From an uncultured Candidatus Saccharibacteria bacterium (GTDB lineage Bacteria; Patescibacteriota; Saccharimonadia; Saccharimonadales; UBA10212), in NCBI GenBank assembly GCA_964483315.1, contig CAZAAL010000001.1:274733-338732 (forward strand): 64,000 nucleotides of DNA, read 5' to 3'. The translations under genes and the position numbers were made by a program. This document shows, piece by piece, positions 3,446 to 56,211 of the stretch. Within the stretch, counting starts at the first letter, position 1; the number at the start of each line of letters is the position of its first letter. Under the pieces are notes generated by a model. It searched no databases. It had not been told where the DNA came from and saw only the letters and a list, made by a program, of their open reading frames with translations.

Positions 3446-3481
3446 ACTACATAATTGGTACATATGTACCAATTATGTAGT
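3446..3481. repeat. palindrome A (perfect; CTACATAATTGGTACATATGTACCAATTATGTAG core)
   Basis: Read directly. The 34-bp core 3447-3480 is its own reverse complement, and one further A:T pair extends it. It lies 30 nt after the pcrA stop. Confidence 0.95.
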
Positions 3482-3510
3482 ACAGCAACAACTTTTTGCC
3501 CAAAAAACAT

Positions 3511-3544
3511 CTACATAAAAATAACATATGTACCAATTATGTAG
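3511..3544. repeat. palindrome B (chimeric arms: left CTACATAAAAATAACAT, right ATGTACCAATTATGTAG)
   Basis: The outer 8 bp and inner ACATATGT are palindromic and the central N5 differs between arms. The left arm equals the copy F arm and the right arm equals the copy A arm. Its centre is 64 bp from the centre of A. Confidence 0.9.
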
Positions 3545-3631
3545 TACGACAGGATCTGGCAAAGTGTACAGTAGCTTTTATTGGTTATGAGTTGATTGTA
3601 AAAAAACAAATAAAAATGTATTTTTAATTGG

Positions 3632-4099
3632 ATGATTAAGCAGGCTAGGGCGATAATTTCAAAATCAATTTACTATATTGGACTGCCAGTTGTTTATCTA
3701 GAATTTAAAGACTCAACTAGGGCATATCTGCTGTTAGAGGCATCTGGGCAGGTACTATTTGTTAAAAGTTGGTTTGGCAATCAAAAGTACAAATTGCCGG
3801 GCGGTGGCCTAAAAAAGGGTGAAGACCCAAAAAATGGCGTAGTCCGCGAAGTAAATGAAGAAACAGGCCTTTCAATTGACCCTAGCCAACTAAATTTAAT
3901 ACTAGATTTACAACAAAGTCATGCAGGGGCAAATTATCGTCACTTGGTTTATAAACTAAAACTTGAAGAGCAAAAATGGCCCAAACCAGCAAAGTTCGAA
4001 ATAATGGAGGCAGTTTGGTTGAGTCCAAGCATTATAAATCTGTCCAATTCAAATCAAGCGACAATTAAAGCACTCAAGACCGCCGGACTTGTTAGCTAA
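3632..4099 (+). CDS. NUDIX hydrolase
   Basis: Complete Nudix box GGLKKGEDPKNGVVREVNEETGL (GX5EX7REUXEEXGU). Confidence 0.85.
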   Translation: MIKQARAIISKSIYYIGLPVVYLEFKDSTRAYLLLEASGQVLFVKSWFGNQKYKLPGGGLKKGEDPKNGVVREVNEETGLSIDPSQLNLILDLQQSHAGANYRHLVYKLKLEEQKWPKPAKFEIMEAVWLSPSIINLSNSNQATIKALKTAGLVS

Positions 4100-4186
4100 G
4101 GTAGCATTTTGCTATAATGAGTTAGCCTAAGGAGCGTGTATTGATGTTGCCAATTTTCGGTTGTATCCAGCTCTTTATTAGCACCT

Positions 4187-5419: not shown

Positions 5420-5431
5420 TAATATAATCCT

Positions 5432-6007
5432 ATGAATCTTCAGTGCGTCAGATGCAGTAAATCATTCGAAAGACCGCTAAAAGACGTCAACAGAGGAAGA
5501 GTTAAGTATTGTAGTAGAGTTTGCTCGGATGAGCATAAAAAAGAAAAAGCGCTAATATATGCCAAAAAAGTTATACAAAACGACAAAAAACAATGTAAAG
5601 CTTGTGATGCAACAAAACCATTATCAAGTTTCCCTAAATCAAAAGATAGCTACACGGGTTATTTTTCTTATTGCATTGAATGCAGAAGAGACTTAAATCG
5701 AGCACAAGACAAAAAGAGATGGTCAGAAAAAAAAGAGAAACTGATTGCTCAAAGAAGAAATGCACATTTACGTCGGGAGTTTGGAATCACAACTGAACAC
5801 TATGAGCAACTACTAAACACGCAAAAAGGTGTTTGCGCAATTTGCAAAGAAAGCAAACAGTATAAACTTTTAGCTGTTGATCATGACCATACAACTGGGA
5901 TAATAAGAGGCATTCTTTGCGAAAACTGTAATCGAGCTTTAGGAATGTTTAAGGACGATGAAAACAGATTGCAAAACGCGATAGAGTACCTAAAAGCAAA
6001 TGGATAA
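5432..6007 (+). CDS. recombination endonuclease VII-family (HNH-type) nuclease with N-terminal CxxC zinc-ribbon motifs
   Basis: CAICKESK...LAVDHDHTTGIIRGILCENCNRALGMF is the Endonuclease_7 signature. Upstream CxxC pairs are present. It overlaps the rsmA start by 8 nt. Confidence 0.8.
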   Translation: MNLQCVRCSKSFERPLKDVNRGRVKYCSRVCSDEHKKEKALIYAKKVIQNDKKQCKACDATKPLSSFPKSKDSYTGYFSYCIECRRDLNRAQDKKRWSEKKEKLIAQRRNAHLRREFGITTEHYEQLLNTQKGVCAICKESKQYKLLAVDHDHTTGIIRGILCENCNRALGMFKDDENRLQNAIEYLKANG

Positions 6008-10352: not shown

Positions 10353-11557
10353 TTTACAAAAGTTAGGGCGTGACCAATTCGACCAGCACGGCCGGTACGG
10401 CCAATTCGGTGAATGTAATCGTCATAGGTTTGGGGTGTCGAATAATTGATTACGTGTGTGATATCAATTACATCGATTCCACGTGCAGCCACATCGGTAG
10501 CCACTAAAATTTTTATATCACTATCTTTAAATCGTTTTAGTGCGCGTTGGCGTTGGCCTTGGCTTTTTCCGCCATGAATAGCATCTGCCGGGAAGCCTCG
10601 GGCAATGAGTTCTTTACTTAAGCGTTCGACGCTACGTTGGGTTTCGTCAAAAACAATTACCTTAGATACGTGTGGTTCATTTAATATGTTGTGTAGCTTA
10701 TCCATCTTTTCGTTTGATGTGGCGTACTTAACAATATCTTGGTTAACGTTTTCGCTGGTTGGTGTTGTACTAACCGTAATTGTGACTGGGTTGTTCGAAA
10801 AAGTGTGGATTAGCTCATTAACCTTGTAGTCAAGCGTTGCCGAAAAAAAGTATGACTGTCTTTGGCTGGCAAGTTGGCCTAAAATGCTTCGGACATCATT
10901 TATAAAGCCCATATCAAGCATTCGATCTACCTCATCGAGCACCACATTATCAAAACCGTTTAGCTTTAAGCTTCCGCGCTCGATATGGTCCTTAATACGG
11001 CCAGGCGTGCCAATTACAATTGATGGATTGGCTCGTAAATCTCTAAGTTGCGGGGAGATGTTTGAGCCACCAATTAAAATTGCGCCAGTTAGGCCACTGC
11101 CTTTGGCGATTGATTTACATTCTTGTTCGATTTGTTGAGCCAGCTCGCGTGTTGGAGCAATAATTAGCGCCCTTGAAGACCTAGAATTAATTAACTTGTT
11201 AAGTATCGGTACGGCAAAGGCGGCGGTTTTACCGGTGCCGGTGTTGGCAACACCAATAACATCTTTGCCCTCGAGCCCTACTACAATCGTTTTATCCTGA
11301 ATTGGCGAAGGCGTTATGTAGCCTTTGGCCGATAGGTTAGATTTTATAAGCGGGTTAACATTAAAATCTTCAAAAGTATGTACGGGGATATAATCCTCGC
11401 TAGCTGTGGGGTTAGCTTTTTTGATAAATTTTGCAGGGTCAATATACTGGCCTCGCCCTTTTTTAACAGTTAGCTGATTGTTGCGTCTGCCATTAAATGA
11501 TCGGCTACTATATACACTGCGTGATGAACTCGAACTTCGATTTTGTCGATATGACAT
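10349..11557 (-). CDS. DEAD-box ATP-dependent RNA helicase (DEVD variant) with Ser/Arg-rich N-terminus
   Basis: Motifs NTGTGKTAAF, PTRELA, VLDEVD, SAT, ARGIDV and HRIGRTGRAG. Confidence 0.92.
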   Translation of the reverse strand: MSYRQNRSSSSSRSVYSSRSFNGRRNNQLTVKKGRGQYIDPAKFIKKANPTASEDYIPVHTFEDFNVNPLIKSNLSAKGYITPSPIQDKTIVVGLEGKDVIGVANTGTGKTAAFAVPILNKLINSRSSRALIIAPTRELAQQIEQECKSIAKGSGLTGAILIGGSNISPQLRDLRANPSIVIGTPGRIKDHIERGSLKLNGFDNVVLDEVDRMLDMGFINDVRSILGQLASQRQSYFFSATLDYKVNELIHTFSNNPVTITVSTTPTSENVNQDIVKYATSNEKMDKLHNILNEPHVSKVIVFDETQRSVERLSKELIARGFPADAIHGGKSQGQRQRALKRFKDSDIKILVATDVAARGIDVIDITHVINYSTPQTYDDYIHRIGRTGRAGRIGHALTFVN

Positions 11558-11657
11558 AAAAAAAGAATCCTTTGATTATTTAATTTGTAATTTGATTGTC
11601 GCTAATGAAATCAAGTACAAACCAAACATCCCGGATTCATCAATAACAATTAAAATA

Positions 11658-11686
11658 ATTTTAGCACGATATATTTTACTTGTCAA
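11658..11686 (-). promoter_or_regulatory. sigma70-type promoter of the DEAD-box helicase gene
   Basis: The minus strand reads TTGACA-17 nt-TAAAAT. This implies a ~90-100 nt 5' UTR. Confidence 0.5.
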
Positions 11687-11730
11687 ATTACCATAAGTGC
11701 AATTATCCTTTAATCAATTTTTTCGATATA

Positions 11731-12357
11731 TCAGTAGAGCTGAGATATTGAACCGTTAGGGTTTTTTATCCATGGTTGATCTCCTGAATCTGTTGCACAC
11801 TGACTTACAAATTCTTCATAGATTAAGCCACCGTTCTTACTTTTGCAAACAGGGCCATTCAGAGTCTCCTCATCCCAACTACCCTTAGGATTTAAAACCC
11901 AAATTGCCGGGGCACCACCGATATAACTGCTAGTCTTATCCACGGAAGTGTTACCTCCACGTATATTAACATCACTAATTAAGGATATCTTATATATATT
12001 TATGTAATCTTTGTTTGTAGTAAATACGTTATTTTTTAGTACATCAGTCATGTATGATTTAAAACTTGCCGGAGTGAATTCTGGTAATTTGCTTACATCA
12101 TCCGGTGTTTGGAGTGTAATATCAACTTCTTTTATATATGGACTTTTCGTAACATTTTCATCAACCGCCTTGGGTTGATTTCCGGTAGCATTTATATATT
12201 TTTCGGTGGTCACGCTATTACTTTTATCTGCATTGTTTAAAGTCTCGGTTGTTTGCTTATTGGAAGTGTATACATAAAATCCAACTCCGGATACTATCCC
12301 TACAACTACTACAAGAAGTATGATCTGCAAGACTCCAAAACCTTTAGTCGATTTCAT
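11731..12357 (-). CDS. hypothetical secreted/anchored protein
   Basis: N-terminal TM anchor (VLQIILLVVVVGIVSGVGFYVY). No recognisable domain. Confidence 0.55.
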   Translation of the reverse strand: MKSTKGFGVLQIILLVVVVGIVSGVGFYVYTSNKQTTETLNNADKSNSVTTEKYINATGNQPKAVDENVTKSPYIKEVDITLQTPDDVSKLPEFTPASFKSYMTDVLKNNVFTTNKDYINIYKISLISDVNIRGGNTSVDKTSSYIGGAPAIWVLNPKGSWDEETLNGPVCKSKNGGLIYEEFVSQCATDSGDQPWIKNPNGSISQLY

Positions 12358-12480
12358 AATGCTAATTATGCACCTTCAACGAAAAAATGCCATATTAACT
12401 TAAGCTTTAAATCTCATAAGTAGAGGCTAGACTAAACTAGTTAGCATAATTATTATGTTTATGTTATAATAATTATACGA

Positions 12481-12874
12481 GGGGCTGAATTTAAGCTCGA
12501 CGAATGGACTTTAACAATCTTGATGGCAGGTCGGGTCGCACTGAACGTTATCCGGTGCACAGGCTATAAATGCCAAAAATAGTTTAAGCGACATGGTTGA
12601 TCGAGTTTTCGCTCAACGTGGCGCTCTAGCTGTAGCCTAATTATTTAAGCTACCATCGACTGGCTGACGTCAGATAGGACTCAGTCGGTGTTATATTTAT
12701 CTGACTGCTCTAAGCTGTGGTAGACCGCCGTAGCATAGTTAAGATTATTGGACTGCACCCTATCCTGTTTTGATCGTTTATAGGGGCAGGGCTAAGCAAT
12801 TTAAACGATACAAACCTGTAGTCATCAAGCGTGTTACCAATCGGACGTGGGGGCAGTACCCACCAGCTCCACCA
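12481..12874 (+). ncRNA. ssrA: tmRNA (SsrA)
   Basis: 5' GGGGCTGA. The 3' tRNA-like end is GGACGTGGGGGCAGTACCCACCAGCTCCACCA. An internal tag ORF at 12572-12640 encodes AKNSLSDMVDRVFAQRGALAVA* (typical ...ALAVA end). A TATAAT box lies at 12465-12470. Confidence 0.87.
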
Positions 12875-12879
12875 AAAAT

Positions 12880-12905
12880 GCATCAGTTTATACTGGTGCT
12901 TTTTT
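12880..12905 (+). terminator. intrinsic terminator after tmRNA
   Basis: 7-bp stem GCATCAG/CTGGTGC (one G:U pair), 6-nt loop, then TTTTTT. Confidence 0.7.
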
Positions 12906-12924
12906 GATTGGTATAATTTAGCTA

Positions 12925-13995
12925 GTGTTAAAAAAATATTTTGAGGTTTATTGGTGGGTTTTGCCAGTGGTATTTATAACCGGTAGTATTTTAGCTTCTG
13001 CCACAATAATCAAACAAAGCCAAGACACCAAGACTACATACGAATTTGTTGAGTGCACTGGTCAGCAGTCCGCTGACTTTAAATGCTGGAAGAGCCGTTA
13101 TGAAGCTTTGGTTATGAATAAATCACCCGAAGAAGCTCTAGCAAGCGCCGAGCAAGAAAGTAATAAGGGCGGATATGTTCGAACAAATTGCCACCAAATA
13201 GCCCATGTTATAGGCAGACAATCTGCTAAAAAATACAGCCTGAACCTAACAACAACGTTTGAGCATGGTAACAAATTTTGCGCATCTGGCTACTATCACG
13301 GAGCAATGGAGTCAATCACAGCAAACGTTGGACCAGACAAAATTAGGGCTGAAATTTCAGACATTTGTAAACCGTTAAGGGATAAAAACCCCTATAACCT
13401 TGTCCATTACGATTGTGCGCATGGCCTTGGACACGGTGTAATGTCGATGGAAAATTATGATCTATTTAAAGCACTTGAAGATTGCGAAAAAATGGCAGAT
13501 ATGTGGGAAAGCGAATCGTGTAGCACCGGGGTGTTTATGGAAAACATTATGAGTATCGTAAATAACCCTGATTATAAAACAAAATATTTAAGATCAGACG
13601 AGCCTATGTATCCATGTACGGCTGTTAATGACAGACAAAAAAGCCCATGCTATATAAATCAAACTTCGTACGCTTTAACAGCAGTTGGCGGAAGCTATGA
13701 AAAGGTTTTTGAGCTATGTAGCCAAGCTGGCAATTTTGAATCGACATGTTATCAAAGTTTGGGGCGGGACGCATCGGGCAACACTATTCAAAACCCTGAT
13801 CAGGCGAACCAGATTTGCCAAAAAGGCGTCAATAACGAACAGGTCGTAAATTGTGTGATTGGTGCTGTTAAAGATATTGTGTGGATTGGCAACAGTAAGC
13901 CAAATGGCTTAGTATTTTGTGCTTTACAAAACGAAGTTAGCATCGAACAAACTTGCAACGAAACGGTAGAGGCTTATTATGCGAGCTTTAACTAA
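12925..13995 (+). CDS. hypothetical Cys/His-rich membrane-anchored protein
   Basis: GTG start 7 nt after a TGgTATAAT box. N-terminal TM helix. Recurrent C-x2-3-G-x2-HG-like motifs (CHQIAHVIG, CASGYYHGAM, CAHGLGHGVM, CSTGVFM). Confidence 0.6.
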   Translation: MLKKYFEVYWWVLPVVFITGSILASATIIKQSQDTKTTYEFVECTGQQSADFKCWKSRYEALVMNKSPEEALASAEQESNKGGYVRTNCHQIAHVIGRQSAKKYSLNLTTTFEHGNKFCASGYYHGAMESITANVGPDKIRAEISDICKPLRDKNPYNLVHYDCAHGLGHGVMSMENYDLFKALEDCEKMADMWESESCSTGVFMENIMSIVNNPDYKTKYLRSDEPMYPCTAVNDRQKSPCYINQTSYALTAVGGSYEKVFELCSQAGNFESTCYQSLGRDASGNTIQNPDQANQICQKGVNNEQVVNCVIGAVKDIVWIGNSKPNGLVFCALQNEVSIEQTCNETVEAYYASFN

Positions 13996-14362
13996 ACTAA
14001 GTTTTAACACTAAACTTGCAATAAACATTTTGTGTTTGGCATTTGGGCTTTTGCTAATTGCTGGCAGTTTGTATATCGCTCAAAACAAAGACGATACAGA
14101 AACCCCTGCCGTAGATAGCTCACAAATTATATCTAAAGAATCGCTAGAAAAAGCAAATGGCCAAAATGGCAACGAGTGTTTGGTCGCAATTGACAGAACA
14201 GTTTACAAAATCGAGGGATCAGACTTATGGAAAAACGGCGAACACACCACCTCGAATGGGTTAGCATACTGCGGAAAAGATTTAACAGAAGTTTTAAAAC
14301 AATCGCCGCACGGTCGTACTAAGTTAGAACAACTTGAAAAAATCGGCCAACTAGATCAGTAG
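13979..14362 (+). CDS. cytochrome b5-like heme/steroid-binding domain protein, TM-anchored
   Basis: LEKANGQNGNECLVAIDRTVYKIEGSDLWKNGEH...GKDLTEVLKQSPHG resembles the small bacterial cyt-b5-like domain family. It overlaps the previous gene by 17 nt. Confidence 0.55.
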   Translation: MRALTKLSFNTKLAINILCLAFGLLLIAGSLYIAQNKDDTETPAVDSSQIISKESLEKANGQNGNECLVAIDRTVYKIEGSDLWKNGEHTTSNGLAYCGKDLTEVLKQSPHGRTKLEQLEKIGQLDQ

Positions 14363-14365
14363 AAT

Positions 14366-14394
14366 TTGCTAAAATACTCATTATTTGGTATAAT
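14366..14394 (+). promoter_or_regulatory. sigma70-type promoter giving a leaderless transcript
   Basis: TTGCTA-17 nt-TATAAT (extended TGg). The -10 box ends 8 nt before the ATG at 14403, and there is no Shine-Dalgarno sequence. Confidence 0.55.
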
Positions 14395-14402
14395 ATAGTT
14401 AT

Positions 14403-15326
14403 ATGACAGAGCATTTATTCCCCGACGAGGGAGGCCAATTTGATATTGACGCGCTAGCTGACAGATCATTAGAAGATATTAGGCCACTACTTTCAGATAT
14501 AGAGGAAGAACTAAGGCGGGCTGGACATGATTCCGAAGAATCTAAATCTGAACTACCGCCCGAGATCGATATTTCGGAGTGGTTAGCTGAATTACAAAAA
14601 AGAGAAACAGAATCGCATATAAAACCGATTAGGGAAAGACTTCGCCAAATCGGCTTACATGACCCTGACAGTTTAACTTCTCATGAGGTGTCTAGACTTG
14701 ATTCCGATAGCATTCTTCAAATAGACCAACGAAATATAGAAAGCTTATTTTATTTTAGCTCCATAAAATCAGGTAAAATGCTCGGTAGAAATTACCCGGT
14801 CACTTGGAGTACTCTTAGGCAACAGATTTATAGTTTGGGAGATGAAAATAGCTACCGTAAAAGTGTAGATCTGGACATGTTCCAACTTCAGGAATGGGTA
14901 AACGCCCAAAACTACTTGATTGGCATAGGTGTTGACCCACAAGATTTAGCCAAACTGACCGGTTCGGGAGAAAACTGTGAAAAACGCCCCGAGGCTAAGC
15001 AAAACGCCAACCGACTGTCGTATTTGTTGCAATCTGAACCGATACTCAAAGACTTTGTTGTCGCTCTACCAGGCTGGACTGAAAAAAGAGGTAAACCTAC
15101 TGTTCACAAAGCCAGTAAAATGGCGCTGGTAGTGCTGAGACTTAAAACTGAAAGAATACAAAAGCAAAAAAAATATTCAATCTACAAAAATGAATTTGAT
15201 GCAGTTGATGAAGAGGTGTACAAAATAACCCTCAAAAGACTCCAGGCAAAAACTAACATTGCAAAATTAATAATTGATAGTACTTCTTACAAAAGCGCGG
15301 ATGCTTTTCTTAAAGAATTTTCATAA
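14403..15326 (+). CDS. hypothetical protein (acidic N-terminus)
   Basis: Long ORF with local codon usage. No recognisable domain. Confidence 0.6.
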   Translation: MTEHLFPDEGGQFDIDALADRSLEDIRPLLSDIEEELRRAGHDSEESKSELPPEIDISEWLAELQKRETESHIKPIRERLRQIGLHDPDSLTSHEVSRLDSDSILQIDQRNIESLFYFSSIKSGKMLGRNYPVTWSTLRQQIYSLGDENSYRKSVDLDMFQLQEWVNAQNYLIGIGVDPQDLAKLTGSGENCEKRPEAKQNANRLSYLLQSEPILKDFVVALPGWTEKRGKPTVHKASKMALVVLRLKTERIQKQKKYSIYKNEFDAVDEEVYKITLKRLQAKTNIAKLIIDSTSYKSADAFLKEFS

Positions 15327-15469
15327 ACTTTAGTGTTGTGCATTTTTTGCTCCTGATGTATAAAAGTAGTATGGTTTCGAAGATGATTATCAGCATTCTC
15401 ATTGTCGCGCGAGCGGCCTAACTGCTGATGTCCTAGAATTTTAACCAACCAGTTTAATCAAAAACAAAT

Positions 15470-15494
15470 CCGGACACAGCAGTCCGGTTTTTTT
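15470..15494 (+). terminator. intrinsic terminator
   Basis: CCGGAC-acagca-GTCCGG followed by TTTTTTT. It lies ~145 nt downstream of the stop at 15326. Confidence 0.75.
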
Positions 15495-15653
15495 GTTGCT
15501 CCCGCATAAGTCTTAAAAATTTAAGGTTTTAGCGGGGGTCAGCTTGGGCCAACGGACGTGACAGCGATCCTGCACGGTCGCCAAGCGGCCCCACCAATTG
15601 CCTGATTGCCTAGACGTGATCGGGTTGTACAACACAACTAGGGAGGAGGCGGT

Positions 15654-15836: not shown

Positions 15837-15917
15837 GGAGCCGTACCTCTTCTTGGTGGTGGCGGGCAATACAAACCCGCCACCACCTCCCCTTAAAACC
15901 AGCTATAATAAGTATTA

Positions 15918-16250: not shown

Positions 16251-16272
16251 AAACCATTACAATAGAAGCAAT

Positions 16273-17730: not shown

Positions 17731-17731
17731 T

Positions 17732-18505: not shown

Positions 18506-18530
18506 TTGCCCCAAGAAGGAGTATATAAAG

Positions 18531-19230: not shown

Positions 19231-19242
19231 TTTAGTTAGTAA

Positions 19243-46477: not shown

Positions 46478-46509
46478 TACATAATTACTACATATGTTAT
46501 TTTTATGTA
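46478..46509. repeat. palindrome C (chimeric; inverted near-copy of B, 31/34 identical)
   Basis: TACATAATTACTACATATGTTATTTTTATGTA. It starts 3 nt after the obg stop. Its centre is 65 bp from the centre of D. Confidence 0.9.
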
Positions 46510-46541
46510 GATCAAAACAGAATCAATTAGCGTCTTTTAAT

Positions 46542-46575
46542 CTACATAATTTTAACATATGTTAAAATTATGTAG
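46542..46575. repeat. palindrome D (perfect; CTACATAATTTTAACATATGTTAAAATTATGTAG)
   Basis: It is its own reverse complement. It ends on the base before the ATG at 46576. Confidence 0.95.
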
Positions 46576-47121
46576 ATGAGCACCAAGGATGGAATTAATA
46601 CAAGTCTTAAAATTATAGGAGCATTTGGGTTTGCGGGCATTGTGGTTGTTGCGCCAAATGCCGTACAAGCCTTGAATTTAATTACCAAAAAAAATAAAAA
46701 GAGTTTTGATAAAAGCCGAGTAATGACCGAGTTAAAACGACAAGGCTTGGTAATGGTAACTAGCGATGGTAAAAAAACTAAGCTTACTCTAACTCCAGCT
46801 GGAGCACATCGTTTACAAAAGTTATCAATCGATGAATTAAAAATACCAAAACCCAAAAAATGGGATAACAAATGGCGAATGGTGTCGTTTGACATTCCAG
46901 TTAGCGAAAGTAAAACAAGATCGTACTTTACTGCTCAGTTAAGAACCCTTGGGCTCGTTATGTTGCAAAAAAGCATGTGGGTGCACCCTTATGAATGCTT
47001 TAGACAAGTTTCTAAAACAGCAGATTATTATAATGTAAGACGTTATTGTAGTTTTTTTGAACTATCTAGTATTGATGAAAAAAATCTGTCAAAGCTCAAA
47101 AAGCATTTTAACTTAAAGTAA
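46576..47121 (+). CDS. PaaX-like / Cas2-fold-like putative DNA-binding regulator
   Basis: KKWDNKWRMVSFDIPVSESKTRSYFTAQLRTLGLVMLQKSMWVHP matches the W.g.W..v.fdiPe..r..R......L...Gf..lq.svwv.P pattern of PaaX-type proteins. The preceding wHTH-like region is VMTELKRQGLV. Bracketed by palindromes C, D and E. Confidence 0.58.
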   Translation: MSTKDGINTSLKIIGAFGFAGIVVVAPNAVQALNLITKKNKKSFDKSRVMTELKRQGLVMVTSDGKKTKLTLTPAGAHRLQKLSIDELKIPKPKKWDNKWRMVSFDIPVSESKTRSYFTAQLRTLGLVMLQKSMWVHPYECFRQVSKTADYYNVRRYCSFFELSSIDEKNLSKLKKHFNLK

Positions 47122-47162
47122 CTTATACATAATTGGTACATATGTACCAATTATGTATAAGT
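47121..47162. repeat. palindrome E (perfect 42 bp; A-type core with extended arms)
   Basis: ACTTATACATAATTGGTACATATGTACCAATTATGTATAAGT is its own reverse complement. It overlaps the last base of the stop codon. Confidence 0.95.
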
Positions 47163-47194
47163 TACGATGGTGGGTGGCTTAAGAATAAAATAAA

Positions 47195-47294: not shown

Positions 47295-48824
47295 ATGGCA
47301 AATGTAAGGATATTAAAAAACAATGGTCTAGTGCCTGGCTCAAAGACTGAGTACTATGTTGATGTTGCACTAGAAAATGGTGAAGTCAGAACAGGCTGGC
47401 GTTGGGACACTCAGAGGGATACGGTTATTAGCTCTGGTGGCGTGGAGTATGGTACTGTTACAAATTTCACAACACCTCACACCGATAGTGCTGATTCTGG
47501 CCAGAGACCAATAGAAGATACTGATAAAGACGGCAGGCCAAACAGAACTGACGCAGATGATGATGGCGATGGAGTCCCAGATGTCAGGGATGCTTTTCCT
47601 TTGGATAAGACTAAACAATATGCTGGGCCGGGTGAAGGTGCAAATATTACTTCGTCATCTCCTGAAGATAAAATAAATGCCCCAGCAGAAGGTAGGCCTA
47701 ACCCAACACCAAAGGGGGAAGTTATTGATGGTGGATCGCCCATACCTAAAAATCAAGCGGATCAAACTAATTCCAACTCAAACACAAGCAATACTGGCAA
47801 TAGTAATAATGGTGGCGGTGGTTCATTGAGCGGCCCATCTGGCCCGCCAACAGTTAATAGAGACACCGAACCAGATTCTGTGCCGGACGCAAGTTTAAAG
47901 GGCGCTACCGTACTTGGTCAAACAAATCAGGGCTGGGGAGCTGCTTCTGATTTTGCAAAATATGGTGAGCCAGGTCAGGGCAGTGACGTACAACGACCTG
48001 CAGGTACTGGTGATGATGCCACCCCCGAAATTTACACCGGTGGCGCCAAACCAACCGATAAATCATACAGCTTTACAGATAAACTTGGGCGTGAAAACAC
48101 AATTACAATTACTGAGTCAGGCGCCGTAATCCAGCAGGTAGAAGGTGGTAATCCATATCGAATTAACAGAGAAGACGCCGAAAAAGTTCTAGAAAGCAAG
48201 GGAATTGATATAAATGATAGCGTTTATACTGAACAAAATATTGGGACTCCAGTTACAGATCCAGAAGTAACCGCACAATATGGCTGGGGTGCTTCGAACG
48301 TAACCAATGAATTAATTTCACCAAATCCAAGGAAAGAGCTAACAGACAATGACACTAGATCTGCACCTACTGCTCAATCTCAGGAAACTTATGAACCTAC
48401 AAATCCTGGTTGGGGAAACGCTGGGTCATCTACAAGCTCAGATCCTCAAACCTCAGATGTATACCAACCAACAAATCCTGGTTGGGGTAATTCTGTACCT
48501 GAAGCAAAAGAGCACAATGATGCCAGAACACTGACAGGTAATCCTGGTGTGTGGGGCACAGCTGGCGGTAATCCGGATACAATTGTAGTATCTGGCACAG
48601 GCCCGACTCCCCCGGATGTTTTAAATCCTGCTCCTCAATCTCAGCCTGCACCAACTACTAAATGGGGGAACATGAACGCTGATCAAATTGAACAAGCTAT
48701 CAACAACTCTTCAGCAGGCCATTCGGCAACATTACCAAATAACCCAGATACAAACCAGCAGATATTGGATACAACGGACGGTGACTCAAATACTTATCGT
48801 CCTGGTGTCCAGCTAGATATTTAG
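47295..48824 (+). CDS. hypothetical low-complexity protein with thrombospondin-type-3-like Ca-binding repeats and GWG repeats
   Basis: DTDKDGRPNRTDADDDGDGVPDVRDAFPLD. At least six [NQ]xGWG[AN] repeats (NQGWGAAS, QYGWGASN, NPGWGNAG, NPGWGNSV, PGVWGTAG, TKWGNMN). No obvious signal peptide. Confidence 0.6.
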   Translation: MANVRILKNNGLVPGSKTEYYVDVALENGEVRTGWRWDTQRDTVISSGGVEYGTVTNFTTPHTDSADSGQRPIEDTDKDGRPNRTDADDDGDGVPDVRDAFPLDKTKQYAGPGEGANITSSSPEDKINAPAEGRPNPTPKGEVIDGGSPIPKNQADQTNSNSNTSNTGNSNNGGGGSLSGPSGPPTVNRDTEPDSVPDASLKGATVLGQTNQGWGAASDFAKYGEPGQGSDVQRPAGTGDDATPEIYTGGAKPTDKSYSFTDKLGRENTITITESGAVIQQVEGGNPYRINREDAEKVLESKGIDINDSVYTEQNIGTPVTDPEVTAQYGWGASNVTNELISPNPRKELTDNDTRSAPTAQSQETYEPTNPGWGNAGSSTSSDPQTSDVYQPTNPGWGNSVPEAKEHNDARTLTGNPGVWGTAGGNPDTIVVSGTGPTPPDVLNPAPQSQPAPTTKWGNMNADQIEQAINNSSAGHSATLPNNPDTNQQILDTTDGDSNTYRPGVQLDI

Positions 48825-50872
48825 TGATTTATGTAAATCGTGCCATCGTCAGGTAAAGACGATTGGCGTTCGGTAACTTCGCGAAGTTTGTTGTTTTCGG
48901 CCTCGAGTCTTTGCAGAGCTTTTTGGTCTTGTTCGAGCTTTTGTTGCTGAAGTTCTAAAATCTGGGCTTGCTTTATAACATCCTCTTCACTAATAACCTG
49001 CTTATCACCAAAATATTTGGCTATACCGCCAAGCTCTTCAATATTTACCAGAGCACCATCTTTCATTACATAAACTGTATCCATCAAGTCTAGCAACAAG
49101 CGCTTATGTGTAACCAATAACACAGTTTTATTTTGTAAAAATCTTGATATATTTTCTTTGATTATTTTTTCTGATTCATCATCTAGTGCCGAGGTAGGTT
49201 CATCCATTAAGACAATTGGAGCCGGCTTTACAAGCCCACGGGCAATTGCAATCCTTTGGCGCTGACCGCCACTTAAGCTTACTCCTCCTTCGGCTATAGG
49301 CATATTTACCCCCATTGGGTTTTTGTTCATAAACTCATCGACATTCGATGCTCTTAAAGCTTGAGCAAAAACTAGCTCATCGATGTTTTGGTTGCCCTGT
49401 GTGATGTTTTCGGCCAGTGTTCCACTAAATATTTGGGGCGTCTGACTAATCCAAACCATACTTTGCCTTAACTCGGCCAATGACACGGTTTGAATATCAA
49501 TACCATCAATTAAGATACGTCCTTCGGTAGGTTCAACAAATAATGGTAACAGTTTTAAGATAGTGCTTTTACCGCTACCACTAGGACCAATGATTGCAGT
49601 TTTTGTACCTCCTTGCAAAGATAGATTAATCCGGTTTACAACTAGATCATTACCATATGAGTAGCTTAGGTTCTGGAACTCTATTGCCCCATTTGTAACC
49701 ATAAAATGGTGGTCGGCTCTTACAGATTCGATCCCTTGATGATCTGTCAAAACTTCAAAGACTCTGCTGATATCTACAAATTTTTGGTTTTTGTTTGCAA
49801 ACTCAGCAACCAGTCCTTCCACCGGCCCAACCAAGTAACCCATGTAAATCATAAAAATTAACAGCTCACCTAACGTGATGGTGCCATTTAATGCAGATAT
49901 ACCACCAAAGTATAAGACTGCTGAGGTAGCCAGTATAACTACAATCCCATTGCTGAATTTATATGATCTACTCCAAATAAGACCAACTGTTGAAAGGTGC
50001 AGGTGCTTTTGCCATAACCTAACTGCTTTAGAAACCTGAATATCCTGCAGGCCATACGCCTGAACTGTCTCGGCGTTATCAATTGATTCGGTAATATTTG
50101 ATGCAATTTGGCTAGAATTTTTAGTTAGCGCCTGCGAAACCGAGTTTAAGCCAGGTCCAAAAATTTTAACTAATATAATCAAACCAGGCACAACAAAAAT
50201 CGTTAGCATTGCCAATTTTAGGTTAATACTCAATAAGATTATAAAAATACCTAAAATCAGAATAATCGATTGCGCTATGTTGGCCGTGCTACCCAATACT
50301 AATGAGGCAAGGCTGTCTGTTAGGTTGTTTTGCCTATAAATGTAATCGCCCTTAGCCAACCTATCCTTATGGAATAAAGGTAAATTAAGTAGATGCGAAA
50401 GCGAATCAACCTTTAAATTAATATTAATTTTATAGCTAAATCTCAGCACGAGTAGTTCTTTAAGTACTGTCAAAAGTGAACTGACAATAAATATTAAGCC
50501 CGATAAAATTGCTAAAAAGAACAAGAGCTCCTCAGTACCTGTATAGGGTTCTAAAAATGAAGGAGCCGGGACATTACCAAACACAGAGTCAACCATAATT
50601 TTAATTGGCCATGGTTTTAACAAAAATACGGCTGATGCCAGTAGACTGACAAATACAATTATCAAGACATAAGGGGTCGCCTTAACTCGGTAATGCCTGA
50701 TCCATTTTTTTATATCAGTCTTTGAATAAGCTCGACCATGGTTAACTAGCCAAGCATCTAAAGCTTCTTTGACTAACGGCGGAGGCCAACCCTGCTTTAT
50801 AAGTGTTTGTTCGATATATTCGGATTTTATTCCGCTTGATACGGCCTGCTCAATTGCATCGTAAACTGTCAC
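48821..50872 (-). CDS. ABC exporter (fused TMD-NBD, MsbA-like) with extra N-terminal helical domain and C-terminal coiled coil
   Basis: Walker A GPSGSGKST, LSGGQRQRIAIARG and VLMDEPTSALD. ~55-aa N-terminal soluble segment. C-terminal QILELQQQKLEQDQKALQRLEAENNKLRE. Confidence 0.88.
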   Translation of the reverse strand: MTVYDAIEQAVSSGIKSEYIEQTLIKQGWPPPLVKEALDAWLVNHGRAYSKTDIKKWIRHYRVKATPYVLIIVFVSLLASAVFLLKPWPIKIMVDSVFGNVPAPSFLEPYTGTEELLFFLAILSGLIFIVSSLLTVLKELLVLRFSYKININLKVDSLSHLLNLPLFHKDRLAKGDYIYRQNNLTDSLASLVLGSTANIAQSIILILGIFIILLSINLKLAMLTIFVVPGLIILVKIFGPGLNSVSQALTKNSSQIASNITESIDNAETVQAYGLQDIQVSKAVRLWQKHLHLSTVGLIWSRSYKFSNGIVVILATSAVLYFGGISALNGTITLGELLIFMIYMGYLVGPVEGLVAEFANKNQKFVDISRVFEVLTDHQGIESVRADHHFMVTNGAIEFQNLSYSYGNDLVVNRINLSLQGGTKTAIIGPSGSGKSTILKLLPLFVEPTEGRILIDGIDIQTVSLAELRQSMVWISQTPQIFSGTLAENITQGNQNIDELVFAQALRASNVDEFMNKNPMGVNMPIAEGGVSLSGGQRQRIAIARGLVKPAPIVLMDEPTSALDDESEKIIKENISRFLQNKTVLLVTHKRLLLDLMDTVYVMKDGALVNIEELGGIAKYFGDKQVISEEDVIKQAQILELQQQKLEQDQKALQRLEAENNKLREVTERQSSLPDDGTIYINH

Positions 50873-50959: not shown

Positions 50960-52390
50960 ATGAGTCAAACCTTTTACTTTTATGATTTAGAAACTAGTGG
51001 TGTCAATGCACGAACTAGTCGAATAATGCAATTTGCTGGTCAGCGTACAAATATGGACTTACAGCCGATTGGTGAGCCAGATAATTATTTGATTAAACTC
51101 AGCAGTGATATTTTACCCGATCCGGAAGCAGTCTTAATAACCGGGATTACTCCGCAACAAACCCTGCAGGATGGACTTACAGAAGTAGAATTTTTGAAAA
51201 TATTCTACAAAGACATAGCCAAGCCAGACACAATTTTTACCGGTTTTAACAGCGTTAGGTTTGATGACGAATTTATACGATACTTAAACTATCGTAACTA
51301 CTATGATGCATACGAATGGCAGTGGCAGGAGGGTAAAACCAAATGGGATATGCTTGATGTAAGTCGTATGACAAGAGCTCTAAGACCAGATGGCATTAAA
51401 TGGCCGTTTGATAAAGATGGGCTCCCAACAAATCGACTGGAGCTATTAACCAAAGTCAATAAAATCGAACATTCATCGGCTCATGACGCTCTGCATGATG
51501 TATTCGCCACTATTGAACTAGCAAAACTTATAAAATCCAAACAACCAAAACTGTTTGATTATCTATTAAAAATTCGAACCAAAAACGAAGCATCAAAGTT
51601 GGTTGAATCTGGTAACCCCTTTATATATACTAGCGGGCGTTATAGCTCAGAAAATTTAAAAACTACAATTGCCGTAAAATTAACAGAAGCTGAAGGTAAA
51701 CAAGGGGTGCTAGTTTATGACTTAAGGCAAGACCCAAAACCATACCTTAAATTAAATATTAATGACTTAGCGGAGCGTTTTTATGTGCCAAGGGATTCCG
51801 ACTTAGGCCAACTGCCAGTAAAAGTTTTGCAGTACAACCGTTGTCCAGCAATTGCGCCAATATCGACGCTTGATAAAGATTCTCAAGCCAGATTAAAACT
51901 GGACATTAAGCAAGTGCAAAAAAACTTACAAACGCTCATATCTAATCCCGATTTTAGCGATAGATTACACGAGGCTTACCTAAACTTTTCTAAAAAAGAT
52001 AATTCGTCCAATGATTTGAATATGTTAAATGTTGATGAAAAGCTATATGACGGATTTTTTGATGACAGCGATAAAACAAAAATGCGTGTTGTTCGCGCGG
52101 CCGACAAAGAACAGTTGGCAGACCTAAACCTAGATTTTGCTGATGAGCGCCTAGGTTTGTTGTTGCCATTGTATAAAGCTAGGAACTTTCCAAAAAGCTT
52201 GAATCAAGACGAGCAAAATTTATGGCAACAGTTTTGCAAAAACAAGTTACTTGGCGATCGGCCAAGCCAGTTTGAAGTTTACTTTACAAAACTCGAAGAG
52301 ATAGCAAATCGAACTAACCTTACAGAGCAACAACGCTATTTGGTCCAAGAGCTTAATCTTTACGGAGAATCAATTCTACCTACCGACTAA
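50960..52390 (+). CDS. sbcB: exodeoxyribonuclease I
   Basis: FYFYDLETSGVN (DxE), ..FNSVRFDDEF.. and SAHDALHDV (DEDDh). Size matches ExoI. Confidence 0.88.
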   Translation: MSQTFYFYDLETSGVNARTSRIMQFAGQRTNMDLQPIGEPDNYLIKLSSDILPDPEAVLITGITPQQTLQDGLTEVEFLKIFYKDIAKPDTIFTGFNSVRFDDEFIRYLNYRNYYDAYEWQWQEGKTKWDMLDVSRMTRALRPDGIKWPFDKDGLPTNRLELLTKVNKIEHSSAHDALHDVFATIELAKLIKSKQPKLFDYLLKIRTKNEASKLVESGNPFIYTSGRYSSENLKTTIAVKLTEAEGKQGVLVYDLRQDPKPYLKLNINDLAERFYVPRDSDLGQLPVKVLQYNRCPAIAPISTLDKDSQARLKLDIKQVQKNLQTLISNPDFSDRLHEAYLNFSKKDNSSNDLNMLNVDEKLYDGFFDDSDKTKMRVVRAADKEQLADLNLDFADERLGLLLPLYKARNFPKSLNQDEQNLWQQFCKNKLLGDRPSQFEVYFTKLEEIANRTNLTEQQRYLVQELNLYGESILPTD

Positions 52391-52392
52391 GA

Positions 52393-52426
52393 ATACATAA
52401 AAATAACATATGTTATTTTTATGTAT
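52393..52426. repeat. palindrome F (perfect; ATACATAAAAATAACATATGTTATTTTTATGTAT)
   Basis: It is its own reverse complement. It lies exactly between the convergent stops at 52390 and 52429. Confidence 0.95.
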
Positions 52427-52428
52427 AT

Positions 52429-52671
52429 CTAGATTGTCAATAAATCAATTTCGATCTGTTTGTTGATCTTTGATCTATTTGTATGTATCAGATTTATAAG
52501 CACACGCCGGCTTTTGTATAGGACTATGGCCAGTAGCCATAACAGAATCACCGACCAAAAGTCGAGCGTTAATTCGGTGCCAGGGATTTGGCCTAATACT
52601 AAAAACTCCATCATTATCTTTTTATCCGTTGATTTAAAGCAAAATATACACCCAAGTTGCATATAAATCAA
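52429..52671 (-). CDS. small hypothetical membrane protein
   Basis: One or two TM helices (LDFWSVILLWLLAIVLY). The true start may be the internal MMEF (about 52614). Confidence 0.4.
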   Translation of the reverse strand: MIYMQLGCIFCFKSTDKKIMMEFLVLGQIPGTELTLDFWSVILLWLLAIVLYKSRRVLINLIHTNRSKINKQIEIDLLTI

Positions 52672-52691
52672 ATAGATTAATTAACTAATGC

Positions 52692-53297
52692 TTATATGAG
52701 TTTTTCAAACAGCTTGTAGGCTGTTGCACCGAGTGTAAGGATTAGGGTGATGCCGATTGCGCCAACAACTATGCCGATAATTGTTAGTAATATGTCCTCT
52801 AAAATAATCGATAAGCAAATTATCACAACCCCAAGAGCTGGCAGTGTATCCAGGCCTGAAAACGGCGGTGAAAAAAATGCAGCCAAACAAAAAAGTACTA
52901 TTACCAACCCAAGTAATCTTAAAAACTGCCGATTAACTACTGTGCTTGATAAACGTGGGCGAGAAAATTTTTCAAAAAATCTTATTAGCTTTATTAGTGG
53001 GATTAATGCCTTTTGCTGAAAGTTACCACCAATTTCAAGTGATTCCCAGCGTTTGGGTATCCATAGTTTTTTAAGCCCAATAATCATTCCGATCGCTATA
53101 CTTATGGCAATCGCTTCGAAAATATGGGATACGCCACCAGTTGGTATAGGCAAGGCCGGCAAGGCCATCAAAAGAAAAATAGCGATAGCAAAAGATTTTT
53201 CGGCAAAAACCTCTTCAAGGTCGCGTACCGTTTTTCGGCCATCAGATTTAAGCCAGTCTGTTAACTCTTGGCTAAAATCTTTCGGTTGTTTCATCAT
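52692..53297 (-). CDS. ExoD-family membrane protein
   Basis: The N-terminal region, then FAIAIFLLMALPALPIPTGGVSHIFEAIAI, and 4 TM helices resemble the exopolysaccharide synthesis ExoD family. Confidence 0.65.
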   Translation of the reverse strand: MMKQPKDFSQELTDWLKSDGRKTVRDLEEVFAEKSFAIAIFLLMALPALPIPTGGVSHIFEAIAISIAIGMIIGLKKLWIPKRWESLEIGGNFQQKALIPLIKLIRFFEKFSRPRLSSTVVNRQFLRLLGLVIVLFCLAAFFSPPFSGLDTLPALGVVIICLSIILEDILLTIIGIVVGAIGITLILTLGATAYKLFEKLI

Positions 53298-53365
53298 CTT
53301 ATTATACTAAGTTATCTATAGACTATGGAAAAAACAGATAAAAACGTGTATAATTTAGCGGCTTT

Positions 53366-56179
53366 ATGAGCGATGTTTTAAGTGTAAAAGGTGCTAGGGA
53401 GCACAATTTAAAGAATATTGACCTTGATATACCAAGGGGTAAATTAGTGGTGATTACTGGGCTTAGCGGTTCAGGCAAATCAAGCTTAGCGTTTGATACG
53501 ATTTATGCAGAAGGTCAAAGGCGATATGTTGAGAGTCTAAGTTCATACGCAAGACAGTTTTTGGGCTTAATGGAAAAACCCGATGTTGATCAGATCGACG
53601 GTTTAAGCCCAGCAATTTCTATCGATCAAAAATCAACAAGCCGAAATCCGCGTAGCACAGTCGCCACAGTTACCGAAATTTATGATTATTTAAGATTACT
53701 TTATGCACGCACTGGCATACCTCATTGTCCCGTTTGCGCTAAGCCAGTTAGTAGGCAGACGCAATCAGCCATAGTTGACCAAGTTGCCAGCCATGATAAA
53801 GGTGCTAGATTAGTAATTTTGGCGCCAGTAGTTGAAGATAAAAAAGGAGCTTTTGAGCATATCCCAGAACAATTTATGCGTGCAGGTTTTGCCAGAGCCA
53901 GGGTCGATGGGGTTATTTATGCGCTTGATGAGTTCCCGGAACTAGATAAAAAGTACAAACATAGTATTGAGATTGTAGTTGATAGATTAGTTAATGATGA
54001 ACCTAGTCTGGGTCGATTAAGCCAAAGCATCGAGCAGGCTCTTGATATTGCAGACGGCAAAATTATTATTGAAAACGCCGACAATCAAATTGATCATAGG
54101 TATAGTTTGCGTTATGCATGCATTGATCATCCTGAGCAACCAATACCGGAGCTTGAACCAAGAACATTTAGTTTTAACTCTCCGCACGGCGCTTGTCCAA
54201 CATGTACTGGACTTGGCAATCGCCTGGAGGTCGATCCAGAGCTCGTAGTACCAAATGGCCGTCTAACAATTGCCGAAGGTGCAATCAGGCCGTTTAACAG
54301 GGTGACTTCAGATGCATGGTATATGAAAAAAATGCAGGCTGTTGCCGATAGGCATAAATTTAGTCTTCATGTACCAACTGGGGATTTAACACAATCACAG
54401 CTTGATAAAATTTTATATGGTACGGGTGACGAAAAGTACACCATAAAGCTTGGTAGCGGTCGGTATTTTGATACAACTTATGAAGGTGTTATTCCCAACC
54501 TGGAGCGTCGACATAAAGAGACGGACAGCGACTTTATGCGTCGGGATATCGAAAGATTTATGCAGGAGAGGCCCTGTCATGCATGTGGTGGTAAGCGTTT
54601 GAAGCCCGAGGTTCTAGCTATTACGGTTAATAAAAAGTCCATTATAGATATCAGTGATTTATCTATCGATCATGCCATTGATTTTTTTAAAAACCTAAAG
54701 TTGGACACAAACTCAACAAAAATTGCCCATCAAATTCTTAAAGAGATTAATGCAAGGCTGCAGTTTCTGCAGGATGTTGGACTTAATTATTTAAATTTAT
54801 CCCGAAGCGCAGTTACATTAAGCGGTGGCGAAGCACAACGAATTAGACTTGCTACTCAGATAGGTTCTGGCTTGCAGGGAGTTTTATATGTTCTAGACGA
54901 ACCAAGTATTGGACTGCATCAACGCGACAACACCAGGCTGATTAACACTCTAAAAAACCTACGGGATTTAGGTAATACGGTCATTGTTGTAGAGCACGAT
55001 GAGGATACAATTAAAACCGCAGATTACTTAGTTGACATTGGCCCTGGTGCTGGCATCCATGGTGGCAAAGTTGTAGCAACTGGTACACCGGATCAAGTGG
55101 CTAAATCAAAAAATTCCATCACAGGCGCTTATTTAAGGGGTGATGAGTCTATCCCGACACCTAAAAAAAGACGCGTCGGTAATGGCTCAAAACTAACCAT
55201 AAAGGGTGCTAGGGAAAACAATTTAAAAAATATTGATGTAGATATCCCGCTTGGTAAATTAGTTGTAGTTAGTGGTGTATCTGGTTCGGGCAAATCAAGT
55301 TTAATAAATGATATTTTAGCTAAAGAGTTAAGTGCTAGATTAATGCGAGCCAACATGGTGCCTGGCAGACATGATGAAATTGAAGGTATCAAACAGCTTG
55401 ATAAAGCAATTGTGATTGATCAGTCACCTATTGGCAGAACTCCCAGATCTAACCCAGCAACTTATACAGGTCTGTTTACGCCAATTCGTGAATTATTTGC
55501 GGTTACACCAGAAGCTAAACTGCGTGGGTATAGCGCCGGCAGGTTTAGTTTTAATGTTAAAGGTGGTCGTTGTGAAAACTGCTCAGGCGATGGAGTTATT
55601 AAGATCGAAATGCATTTTTTACCAGACGTCTATGTTCCGTGCGAAGAGTGCAAGGGTAAACGATATAACAAAGAAGCTCTTGAAATTCACTATAAAGGTA
55701 AAACGATTAGCGATGTATTAGAAATGACCTGCGAAACAGCTCTAGAGTTTTTTGAAAACATCCCAAGCATATCTCGAAAACTCCAGACGCTTGTTGATGT
55801 AGGGCTGGGATATATAGCACTTGGCCAACCCGCCACAACATTAAGTGGCGGTGAAGCCCAGAGAGTTAAACTAGCTACGGAACTTTCAAGACGCGCTACA
55901 GGTAAAACACTTTATATCTTAGACGAGCCTACAACTGGCTTACATATGGCCGATACAAAAAAATTATTAGAGGTTCTTCACGCACTGGTTGATACTGGCA
56001 ACAGCATGATTGTAATTGAGCATAACTTGGATGTTATAAAATCGGCGGATTATATTATTGACATGGGGCCAGAAGGCGGAGAAGGCGGAGGTTTTGTTAT
56101 AGCCGAAGGAACTCCAGAACAGGTAGTAAATAACAATAAGAGCTACACCGCCCAATTCCTAAAAAAATTAATTAAGTAA
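53366..56179 (+). CDS. uvrA: excinuclease ABC subunit A
   Basis: Two ABC modules ([27 protein letters not shown]), LSGGEAQR twice and Zn-finger CxxC pairs. Confidence 0.95.
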
Positions 56180-56211
56180 TACAAAATCTTAACATATGTT
56201 AAGATTTTGTA
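56180..56211. repeat. palindrome G (perfect; TACAAAATCTTAACATATGTTAAGATTTTGTA)
   Basis: It is its own reverse complement. It starts 1 nt after the uvrA stop. It contains the stop codon and the last 3-4 codons of the convergent dedA gene. Confidence 0.95.

Follow-up and report, generated by a model that had tools for sequence, protein, structure and literature searches.

Seven dispersed palindromes in a Saccharibacteria genome: candidate operators of a small PaaX-like protein

Why does a stretch of a Saccharibacteria genome carry one palindrome of about 34 bp seven times? The stretch analysed here (the window: 64,000 nucleotides of contig CAZAAL010000001.1, positions 274,733 to 338,732, from the uncultured Candidatus Saccharibacteria assembly GCA_964483315.1) holds seven such copies, here called A to G. 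An earlier note on the same DNA had offered three roles for them without choosing: hairpin-type terminators or RNA-stability elements, operators of a dimeric DNA-binding protein with the product of a local PaaX-like gene as a named candidate, or selfish repeats like repetitive extragenic palindromic (REP) sequences or miniature inverted-repeat transposable elements (MITEs). Our results show that the palindromes are real and that their description was partly wrong. They give partial support to the interpretation, and best support the operator, since the motif is tied to the PaaX-like gene in every related locus, its conserved blocks persist where the stem does not pair, and one copy overlaps the -10 box of that gene. 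We therefore favour the reading that the palindromes are binding sites of the adjacent 181-aa protein, called mini-PaaX below, with autorepression at copy D and with the symmetry of the other copies made at the DNA level; we give this a probability only slightly above one half (about 0.55).

Seven sites and the start of the mini-PaaX gene

When the window was searched for TACAWAA-N5-ACATATGT-N5-TTWTGTA, where N5 stands for five unconstrained bases and up to three mismatches were allowed, seven matches were obtained, starting at 3448, 3512, 46478, 46543, 47126, 52394 and 56180. All of them had zero mismatches, which bears out the original inventory, and the claim that the family is far beyond chance was upheld by 100 shuffles of the window that gave 0 matches. 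An inverted-repeat scan ranked these seven above all other short palindromes of the window. We also trained a position weight matrix solely on the sites of other genomes and applied it to the window, where the seven copies scored 29-45 bits, the next-best position reached 3.7 and the shuffle maximum was 6.9; as nothing weaker is found beyond the seven, the window holds seven intact copies and no decayed ones. The site is tripartite and two-fold symmetric, with the outer block TACAWAA, five unconstrained bases, the core ACATATGT, another five unconstrained bases and the outer block TTWTGTA.

Five of the seven copies (A, D, E, F and G) are perfect palindromes, as had been described and as the inverted-repeat scan confirmed, D reaching 38 nt and E 48 nt (no strand is assigned to any copy). 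Copy A (3446-3481; 36 nt, N5 TTGGT/ACCAA) lies 30 nt past the pcrA stop codon and is the first member of a doublet with B (3511-3544), which has a left N5 of the F type (AAATA) and a right N5 of the A type (ACCAA) and is found 88 nt upstream of the start of a NUDIX gene. Copy C (46478-46509; N5 TTACT/TATTT), 2 nt past the obg stop, is asymmetric. B and C had both been taken for chimeras of A and F arms; this is right for B, but in C only the right arm is of the F type, and the left arm differs from the A-type TTGGT at two of five positions. D (46540-46577) abuts and overlaps the ATG of the mini-PaaX gene, and E (47118-47165) covers its stop codon. F (52393-52426; N5 AAATA/TATTT) lies 3 nt from the sbcB stop and 3 nt from the stop of a conserved small open reading frame (ORF) on the minus strand. 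G (56180-56211; N5 TCTTA/TAAGA) begins right at the end of the uvrA stop and, as had been noticed, supplies the end of dedA, namely its last five codons and stop; DedA is here a few residues shorter than in two relatives, with G forming its C-terminus. Two features had been overlooked: A-B and C-D are doublets of near-equal pitch (64 and 65 bp), and D abuts a start codon and holds an extended -10 box. Thus the claims that all copies sit at gene ends and that each lies within 0-35 nt of a stop codon do not hold, as the nearest upstream stop is 95 nt from B and 67 nt from D, and D, the most informative copy, abuts the ATG at 46576. Together with the gene, C, D and E form a site-site-gene-site cassette.

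Outside the palindrome the flanks of the seven copies showed nothing similar except between neighbouring doublet members, and no target-site duplication was found in the window. There is no T-run 3' of any copy on either strand, in agreement with the first description. Rfam searched over the whole window matched a transfer-messenger RNA (tmRNA) alone, so that no known RNA family covers the sites, and ARAGORN reported no tRNA. Three of the four copies outside the cassette come after DNA-repair genes (pcrA, sbcB and uvrA), a pattern that is suggestive but was seen post hoc.

The mini-PaaX gene (46576-47121, plus strand) encodes a winged helix-turn-helix followed by a Cas2-like ferredoxin domain. 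Its Pfam match is PF20803 (PaaX_M, Cas2-like; E = 6e-19), and the AlphaFold model (predicted local distance difference test score, pLDDT, 93) has E. coli PaaX (8a39, E = 5e-5) as its best PDB match in Foldseek, followed by Rv0674 and 3l09. At the domain level the two halves match MarR-type winged helices and Cas2, and a profile search against the PDB gave MarR/ArsR over residues 10-89 and Cas2 over residues 105-138. The score against the PaaX equivalog TIGR02277 is 31 bits, far below the cut-off of 264, and the PaaX C-terminal domain is absent, for which reasons we use the name mini-PaaX for what is a DNA-binding plus a dimerisation domain. The family comprises 483 clusters (50% identity) at E <= 1e-30, a number that rises to about 3,000 at E <= 1e-10, and nearly all members are 180-235 aa long. 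An alignment of homologues places an invariant D106 at the position of the metal-binding Asp of Cas2, and a 27-sequence alignment contains no invariant His-x-His or Tyr. Searches for transposase or recombinase families returned solely PaaX_M and weak Cas2 matches, and libraries of defence systems and phage proteins gave weak Cas2 matches at most, or nothing. No paa genes are nearby, the neighbours being obg, sbcB, an ATP-binding cassette (ABC) exporter, alaS and an ftsA-like gene. Between genomes mini-PaaX diverges in parallel with neighbouring core genes (50-55% identity, as compared to 55-57% for obg and sbcB), and we therefore consider it to be inherited vertically as a single copy.

Copy D contains promoter-like elements on the plus strand (46541-46568), with TCTACA, a 16-nt spacer and TGT-TAAAAT, so that an extended -10 box (TGTTAAAAT, 46560-46568) ends 7 nt before the ATG. 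As far as can be read from the DNA, a leaderless or very-short-leader transcript would fit this geometry. The arrangement seems to be the local norm, because the pattern TGnTAnnnT ends 6-11 nt before the start codon at 12 of 60 window genes where 0.5 would be expected, which suggests that leaderless or very-short-leader mRNAs are common in the host organism. Examples lie upstream of the genes at 12925, 14403, 37394, 39372, 46576 and 50960.

In the mechanism that we propose, the winged helix of mini-PaaX would contact DNA and the Cas2-like domain would dimerise, giving a symmetric oligomer suited to a two-fold site. Bound at D, the protein would exclude RNA polymerase from the extended -10 box and so repress its own gene; autorepression is proposed because D holds the gene's own box so close to the ATG. 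C and E would complete the conserved cassette, possibly by looping between sites, and A, B, F and G would be further copies of the site, some of them copied to the ends of other genes. Mirroring of the N5, growth into coding flanks and the sharing of arms would result from copying at the DNA level, e.g. by intrastrand template switching.

A parallel is found in E. coli PaaX, which binds TGATTC-N27-GAATCA and represses its own promoter by steric hindrance (PMC9493321). PaaX (PF07848/PF20803/PF08223) likewise joins a winged helix to a Cas2-like domain, and at its Px promoter a long two-fold-symmetric site with widely spaced half-sites lies over the regulator's own promoter. In contrast to PaaX, mini-PaaX has only 181 aa, is without the C-terminal domain that senses phenylacetyl-CoA and has no paa genes at hand, and its site differs in the extra conserved central 8-mer, in bracketing the gene on both sides and in having copies at gene 3' ends. 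The sequence geometry is thus that of a symmetric, spaced operator over the gene's own promoter, and all 13 related loci described below have kept it.

The motif accompanies the gene in related genomes

An exact-pattern scan of one genome per GTDB species gave nine loci (loci from our scans carry L numbers), in five Candidatus Saccharibacteria metagenome-assembled genomes (MAGs), one 'uncultured bacterium', two contigs of one 'Binatia' MAG and one Defluviitaleaceae MAG, with 1-2 exact copies per genome. The Defluviitaleaceae locus (L010) carries one perfect site. One of the two contigs of the 'Candidatus Binatia' MAG (L007; DATKKU01) has the gene order of Saccharibacteria and 27-73% protein identity to window genes, and it and its sister contig L003 are probably mis-binned Saccharibacteria. 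Homologues of the PcrA of the window are named Candidatus Saccharimonadales, in keeping with a Saccharibacterium as its source. Viral contigs scanned for the exact pattern gave no match, which leaves a phage origin unsupported.

A metagenome scan made with an alignment of mini-PaaX proteins gave 49 loci. In all 13 related Saccharibacteria loci that hold the start of the gene (about 50% protein identity; L002, L004, L006, L011-L017 and L064/L065), the motif abuts the start codon or lies within about 20 nt of it. The palindrome stands directly at the start codon in L002, L004 and L006, and the upstream consensus in L011-L017 and L064/L065 is GACATATGT-TA[AG]AA-TTWTGTA(T)ATG. The gene-proximal N5 of the relatives always reads TA[AG][AG]A, i.e. 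it is the -10 box itself. Usually a distal site 65-93 bp upstream is followed by the start-codon site, then by the gene itself and, at its stop codon or shortly past it, by one or two more sites. The window follows this order with C, D and E, as do L006 (site starts 7135, 7055 and 6431), L011 (9887, 9968 and 10582), L013 (2384, 2464 and 3088), L064 (9850, 9939, 10552 and 10631) and L017 (about 300, 393 and 997). Downstream sites are present in L006, L011, L012, L013, L015, L017 and L064, and doublets occur in L005, L006, L011, L013, L017 and L064.

Where the motif deviates, it tends to do so in the same way at the sites of one locus, as with the core ACAATTGT in both sites of L012, the outer blocks TCCACAA/TTATGGA in both of L017 and a CCATATG-type core in L011. 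At 44% identity (L066) the gene has ATACCAT-N6-GCAATTGY-N6-ATGGTAT on both sides, with N6 unmirrored. Homologues of about 30% identity in other candidate phyla radiation (CPR) lineages are accompanied upstream and downstream by TACCATGGTA, GAGACCATGGTCTC, GCCATGGC/TTTTGCCATGGCAAAA or a 48-nt palindrome. Overall, a word of at least 11 nt is common to both flanks of the gene in 32 of 40 loci, vs. 3 of 24 controls, and the distant lineages have only the two bracketing copies within 13-20 kb. Judged by this comparison, the seven palindromes are this genome's copies of a motif that brackets the mini-PaaX gene in many CPR bacteria. We found no prior description of the motif or the protein in the searchable literature on Saccharibacteria and Patescibacteria. 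One distant locus, L029, has a 36-nt perfect palindrome (GTTACACTAATTGTACATATGTACAATTAGTGTAAC, 19744-19779) with the ACATATGT core about 9.7 kb from its mini-PaaX homologue; the homologue's own flanking sites are of the TACCATGGTA type, while the core of the distant palindrome is of the Saccharibacteria type.

Orthologous intergenic regions, whose comparison the earlier note had proposed, vary in the presence and absence of copies: G is missing from the same junction in L012, L014 and L064, and the junction of sbcB with the small ORF is empty in L011, L012 and L014, holds a solo site in the window (F) and in L064, and holds the full cassette in L017. The sbcB 3' site recurs in L064 as a perfect site whose N5 differs from that of F, and at the junction of pcrA with the NUDIX gene in L070 (PcrA 80% identical) one diverged site precedes the NUDIX start by 21 nt. 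As these two positions are each occupied in another genome, true targets or roadblocks may be among A, B, F and G.

Gene regulation in Saccharibacteria and the wider CPR is almost unknown, and a very widespread small regulator is here paired with a candidate DNA motif. An extended -10 and leaderless promoter architecture is predicted, with the gene itself, the NUDIX gene and the sbcB region as candidate targets. Since Saccharibacteria can be transformed (PMC10633639), the operator prediction is directly testable.

Origin of the symmetry and rival explanations

That the palindromes mainly serve as bidirectional hairpin terminators, or as 3'-end RNA-stability elements between packed genes, we regard as improbable. 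Five copies (A, C, E, F and G) do lie 0-30 nt past stop codons, F and G between convergent genes, and as RNA the perfect copies fold on both strands at -15 to -31 kcal/mol (z -6 to -9), with E at -31.3 kcal/mol. However, B (-5.9 kcal/mol, z -1.6) and C (-6.0 kcal/mol, z -1.2) fold no better than shuffled sequences and nevertheless keep all 22 conserved positions. When 35 sites were aligned, the N5 pairs were disrupted in 26-47% of the sequences, and elsewhere about two in three sites keep the conserved blocks with an unpaired N5, so the stem is not maintained across homologues. D is placed upstream of the transcription start, copies occur at only two of nine convergent junctions, several of the remaining seven being overlapping, and the stems are AT-rich without a T-run, unlike the classical GC-stem plus T-run terminators of the same genome at 12880-12899 (after the tmRNA) and 15470-15487. 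A terminator scan listed E as the sole copy, owing to its long stem. In favour of RNA structure, perfect symmetry is enriched away from the promoter of the gene (10 of 21 sites, against 1 of 15 at the promoter, p = 0.011), and two genomes that differ in the N5 of the sbcB 3' site both have it as a perfect palindrome, a compensatory change. The compensatory changes are, though, all Watson-Crick and all-or-none, and this favours copying of DNA over selection for an RNA stem. The number of mirrored N5 positions is bimodal, with 10 sites perfect and the remainder chance-like. E mirrors the stop-codon region of the gene and D the G-AT of the start codon, so that these palindromes reach into flanks constrained on one side, and the left arm of B has its five N5 bases swapped as a block in strain L063 (97.6% identical over 1.56 kb), giving a perfect A-type site. 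From these patterns in the DNA we infer that the perfect symmetry is a product of DNA-level copying and not of RNA-hairpin selection. Template-switch mutagenesis at quasi-palindromes is established in E. coli; the block change that perfects the left arm of B in L063 as compared to the window and the outward growth of D and E into their one-sidedly constrained flanks are like it. It is a mutational mechanism, not a system, and leaves the recurrence of the same N5 arms at different loci unexplained.

Several observations weigh against the operator reading as we have put it. Around F and G, which separate the 3' ends of convergent genes, there is no promoter on which a classical operator could act, and E is about 90-120 nt upstream of the likely promoter of the next gene. 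Residues of the recognition helix do not visibly track the motif variants of L012 and L017, a comparison that was uninformative, and the sites could be recognised by another protein, for which the mini-PaaX gene would be just one target among others. A transcription factor alone does not explain why sites stand on either side of the gene in most CPR lineages, nor why in distant lineages the downstream copy repeats 25-50 nt that include a promoter-like flank and pseudo first codons. The junction occupied by the cassette also differs among otherwise syntenic genomes, in both orientations: alaS and ftsA flank it in L002, L006, L011, L013, L015 and L024, it stands between obg and sbcB in forward orientation in the window and L012 and reversed in L004, L014, L016 and the P0002 contig, and it is found at the sbcB 3' end in L017 and between rplA and trx in L066. 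In L064, a locus with no obg homologue, the gene is divergent from sbcB as in the reversed cassettes. Identical 32-mers are found kilobases apart (the 32-nt cores of A and E in the window; the sites at 8178 and 10631 of L064), and the L064 site at 10552 is nearly identical to that at 20492, 10 kb away, including at least 35 nt of flank, with the duplication beginning exactly at the outer edge of the palindrome.

Much of this would be expected if the palindromes were mobile elements that replicate or recombine, like insertion sequences or like REP doublets (REPINs) and their tyrosine transposases (RAYTs), with the bracketed gene binding and mobilising them or moving the cassette, and with solo sites and doublets as progeny, landing pads or footprints. 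The presence of the repeat on both sides of the gene in 32 of 40 CPR loci, the singlets and doublets (pitches of 64 and 65 bp here, doublets again in further loci), the identical copies and common arms at distant loci, the relocation and inversion of the cassette, the one junction seen empty, solo and full, the DedA C-terminus replaced by G, the duplicated L064 module and D106 as a possible active site all point this way. REP/REPIN elements are also short intergenic palindromes, single and in doublets, often between convergent genes; their repeats flank a single-copy, vertically inherited gene with which they co-diversify between lineages, and several of our copies have GTAG/CTAC at the foot. 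Nevertheless we hold a mobile origin to be unlikely. Mini-PaaX has a transcription-factor fold without HUH (His-hydrophobe-His) or catalytic Tyr motif, unlike the IS200/IS605-type HUH Y1 transposase that REPs flank, and its core-like divergence indicates vertical, single-copy inheritance. REP/REPIN families typically have tens to hundreds of copies with decay, as compared to seven in 64 kb here, none degenerate, and 2-6 per locus elsewhere, few exact copies per GTDB species genome and just two bracketing copies in the distant lineages. Target-site duplications, flank similarity and decayed copies are missing from the window, viral contigs gave no match, and, unlike in REP systems, the repeat overlaps the promoter and start codon of the gene and keeps its blocks without pairing. 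The REP/MITE-like role offered by the earlier note is not established but has gained partial support. As for MITEs, we rejected them, as the copies share just the 32-34 bp palindrome with neither similar flanks nor target duplication. A slightly more doubtful variant is that we are looking at an undescribed CPR-wide module, in which a winged-helix plus Cas2-like gene bracketed by its own sites relocates and inverts while the 34-bp site is copied as perfect palindromes; it would be a non-HUH partnership like REPIN/RAYT, possibly with Asp-dependent DNA cleavage or hairpin handling. If such a process is active, it would be a new kind of repeat-protein partnership, and would bear on how operators can act like selfish repeats in tiny genomes.

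Two further explanations are very improbable in our judgement. Counting the flanking C/G, the site has the 13 + 8 + 13 = 34 bp layout of lox/FRT/dif-like core sites of tyrosine recombinases, and a crossover within the ACATATGT core would turn round or relocate the cassette and make hybrids such as B, which does combine two arm types. Both orientations of the cassette occur, at several junctions, and in L064 repeated site modules enclose a segment with an ABC exporter and a toxin. Xer/pdif modules and integron cassettes resemble the present system in having a gene bracketed by related palindromes at various junctions and orientations, solo sites and a hybrid site, but differ from it in that here no recombinase was identified (a scan of 21 window proteins gave none), the central region is symmetric, the inner five arm bases that the enzyme would normally contact are the variable part, and the gene, instead of being accessory cargo, belongs to the vertically inherited core. 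Moreover, the L064 duplication has its boundary at the outer edge of the site and not in the core, D and E, which flank the gene in the window, are not hybrids, and template switching explains the block change in B equally well. Equally hard to credit is that the sites organise the chromosome or arrest replication forks through a winged-helix protein, on the model of the B. subtilis replication terminator protein (RTP). RTP is a small winged-helix dimer with two adjacent composite sites upstream of its own autoregulated gene and further dispersed sites, as are found here at gene ends, and B and C are asymmetric like polar Ter sites. Against this, mini-PaaX has an added Cas2-like domain, many of its sites are symmetric and would block forks both ways, most relatives have sites at the gene itself only, and the GC skew, positive over most of the window (GC about 40%), shows no switch and hence no terminus.

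Other ideas were tried and dropped. The repeat length of 32-34 bp, spacers of 30-32 bp and a Cas2-like gene recall a clustered regularly interspaced short palindromic repeat (CRISPR) mini-array, which was rejected: the two members of a doublet differ in N5, sites also stand alone, one of them overlaps a promoter, the Cas2-like domain is a weak match fused to a winged helix, and neither cas1 nor an effector gene turned up in the vicinity or in the proteins scanned. Saccharibacteria are naturally competent, and copies lie near repair genes; a DNA-uptake sequence was nevertheless rejected, as the copies are too sparse for one and the motif stays anchored to a single gene from species to species. 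A model in which two overlapping promoters account for the blocks, as their -35, TGn and -10 elements and nothing else, is insufficient alone. In the 35-site alignment 29 of 70 arms read TGT-TAnnn-T (hand count), but the A/E-type (ACCAAT) and many other arms do not resemble a -10 box and keep the blocks all the same.

Neighbouring genes and further observations

In practice the palindromes disrupt the assembly of these organisms from short reads. The Logan contigs L001, L062, L063, L068, L069 and L072, from the same or close strains, end inside A, B, F and G, and the assemblies fragment because the perfect palindromes exceed the assembly k-mer.

DNA-repair genes are concentrated in the window, with pcrA (1281-3416), an endonuclease VII-like gene (5432-6007), sbcB (50960-52390), uvrA (53366-56179) and uvrC (60373-61857); the palindromes outside the cassette that come after one of these genes represent two of the three loci. 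Convergent with sbcB, the small ORF at 52429-52671 on the minus strand (core MMEFLVLGQIPGTELTLDFWSVILLWLLA) probably encodes a membrane protein and is easily overlooked in annotation; homologues are found at the same place in L011, L012, L014, L017 and L064. In L064 (GCA_040961535.1, JBFONH010000001.1) the region directly 3' of the mini-PaaX cassette (10751-20319) encodes an ABC exporter, 50% identical to that of the window (48821-50872), and a 2482-aa polymorphic toxin with a Hint domain, and the site-plus-flank modules at 10552 and 20492 bracket this segment.

The tmRNA gene is located at 12481-12874 on the plus strand (Rfam RF00023, 78 bits) with its terminator right behind it, and was not reported by ARAGORN. 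Two adjacent paralogues of 450 and 444 aa (29458-30810 and 31058-32392), without family assignment, resemble a tandem duplication and match the same region of L006 and L024. Several mid-sized ORFs lack a Pfam match at E <= 1e-5, namely those at 144-1232, 12925-13995, 14403-15326, 26657-27625, 32422-33468, 33471-34445 and 34551-35465 and, on the plus strand, that at 47295-48824, a 509-aa gene directly 3' of palindrome E.

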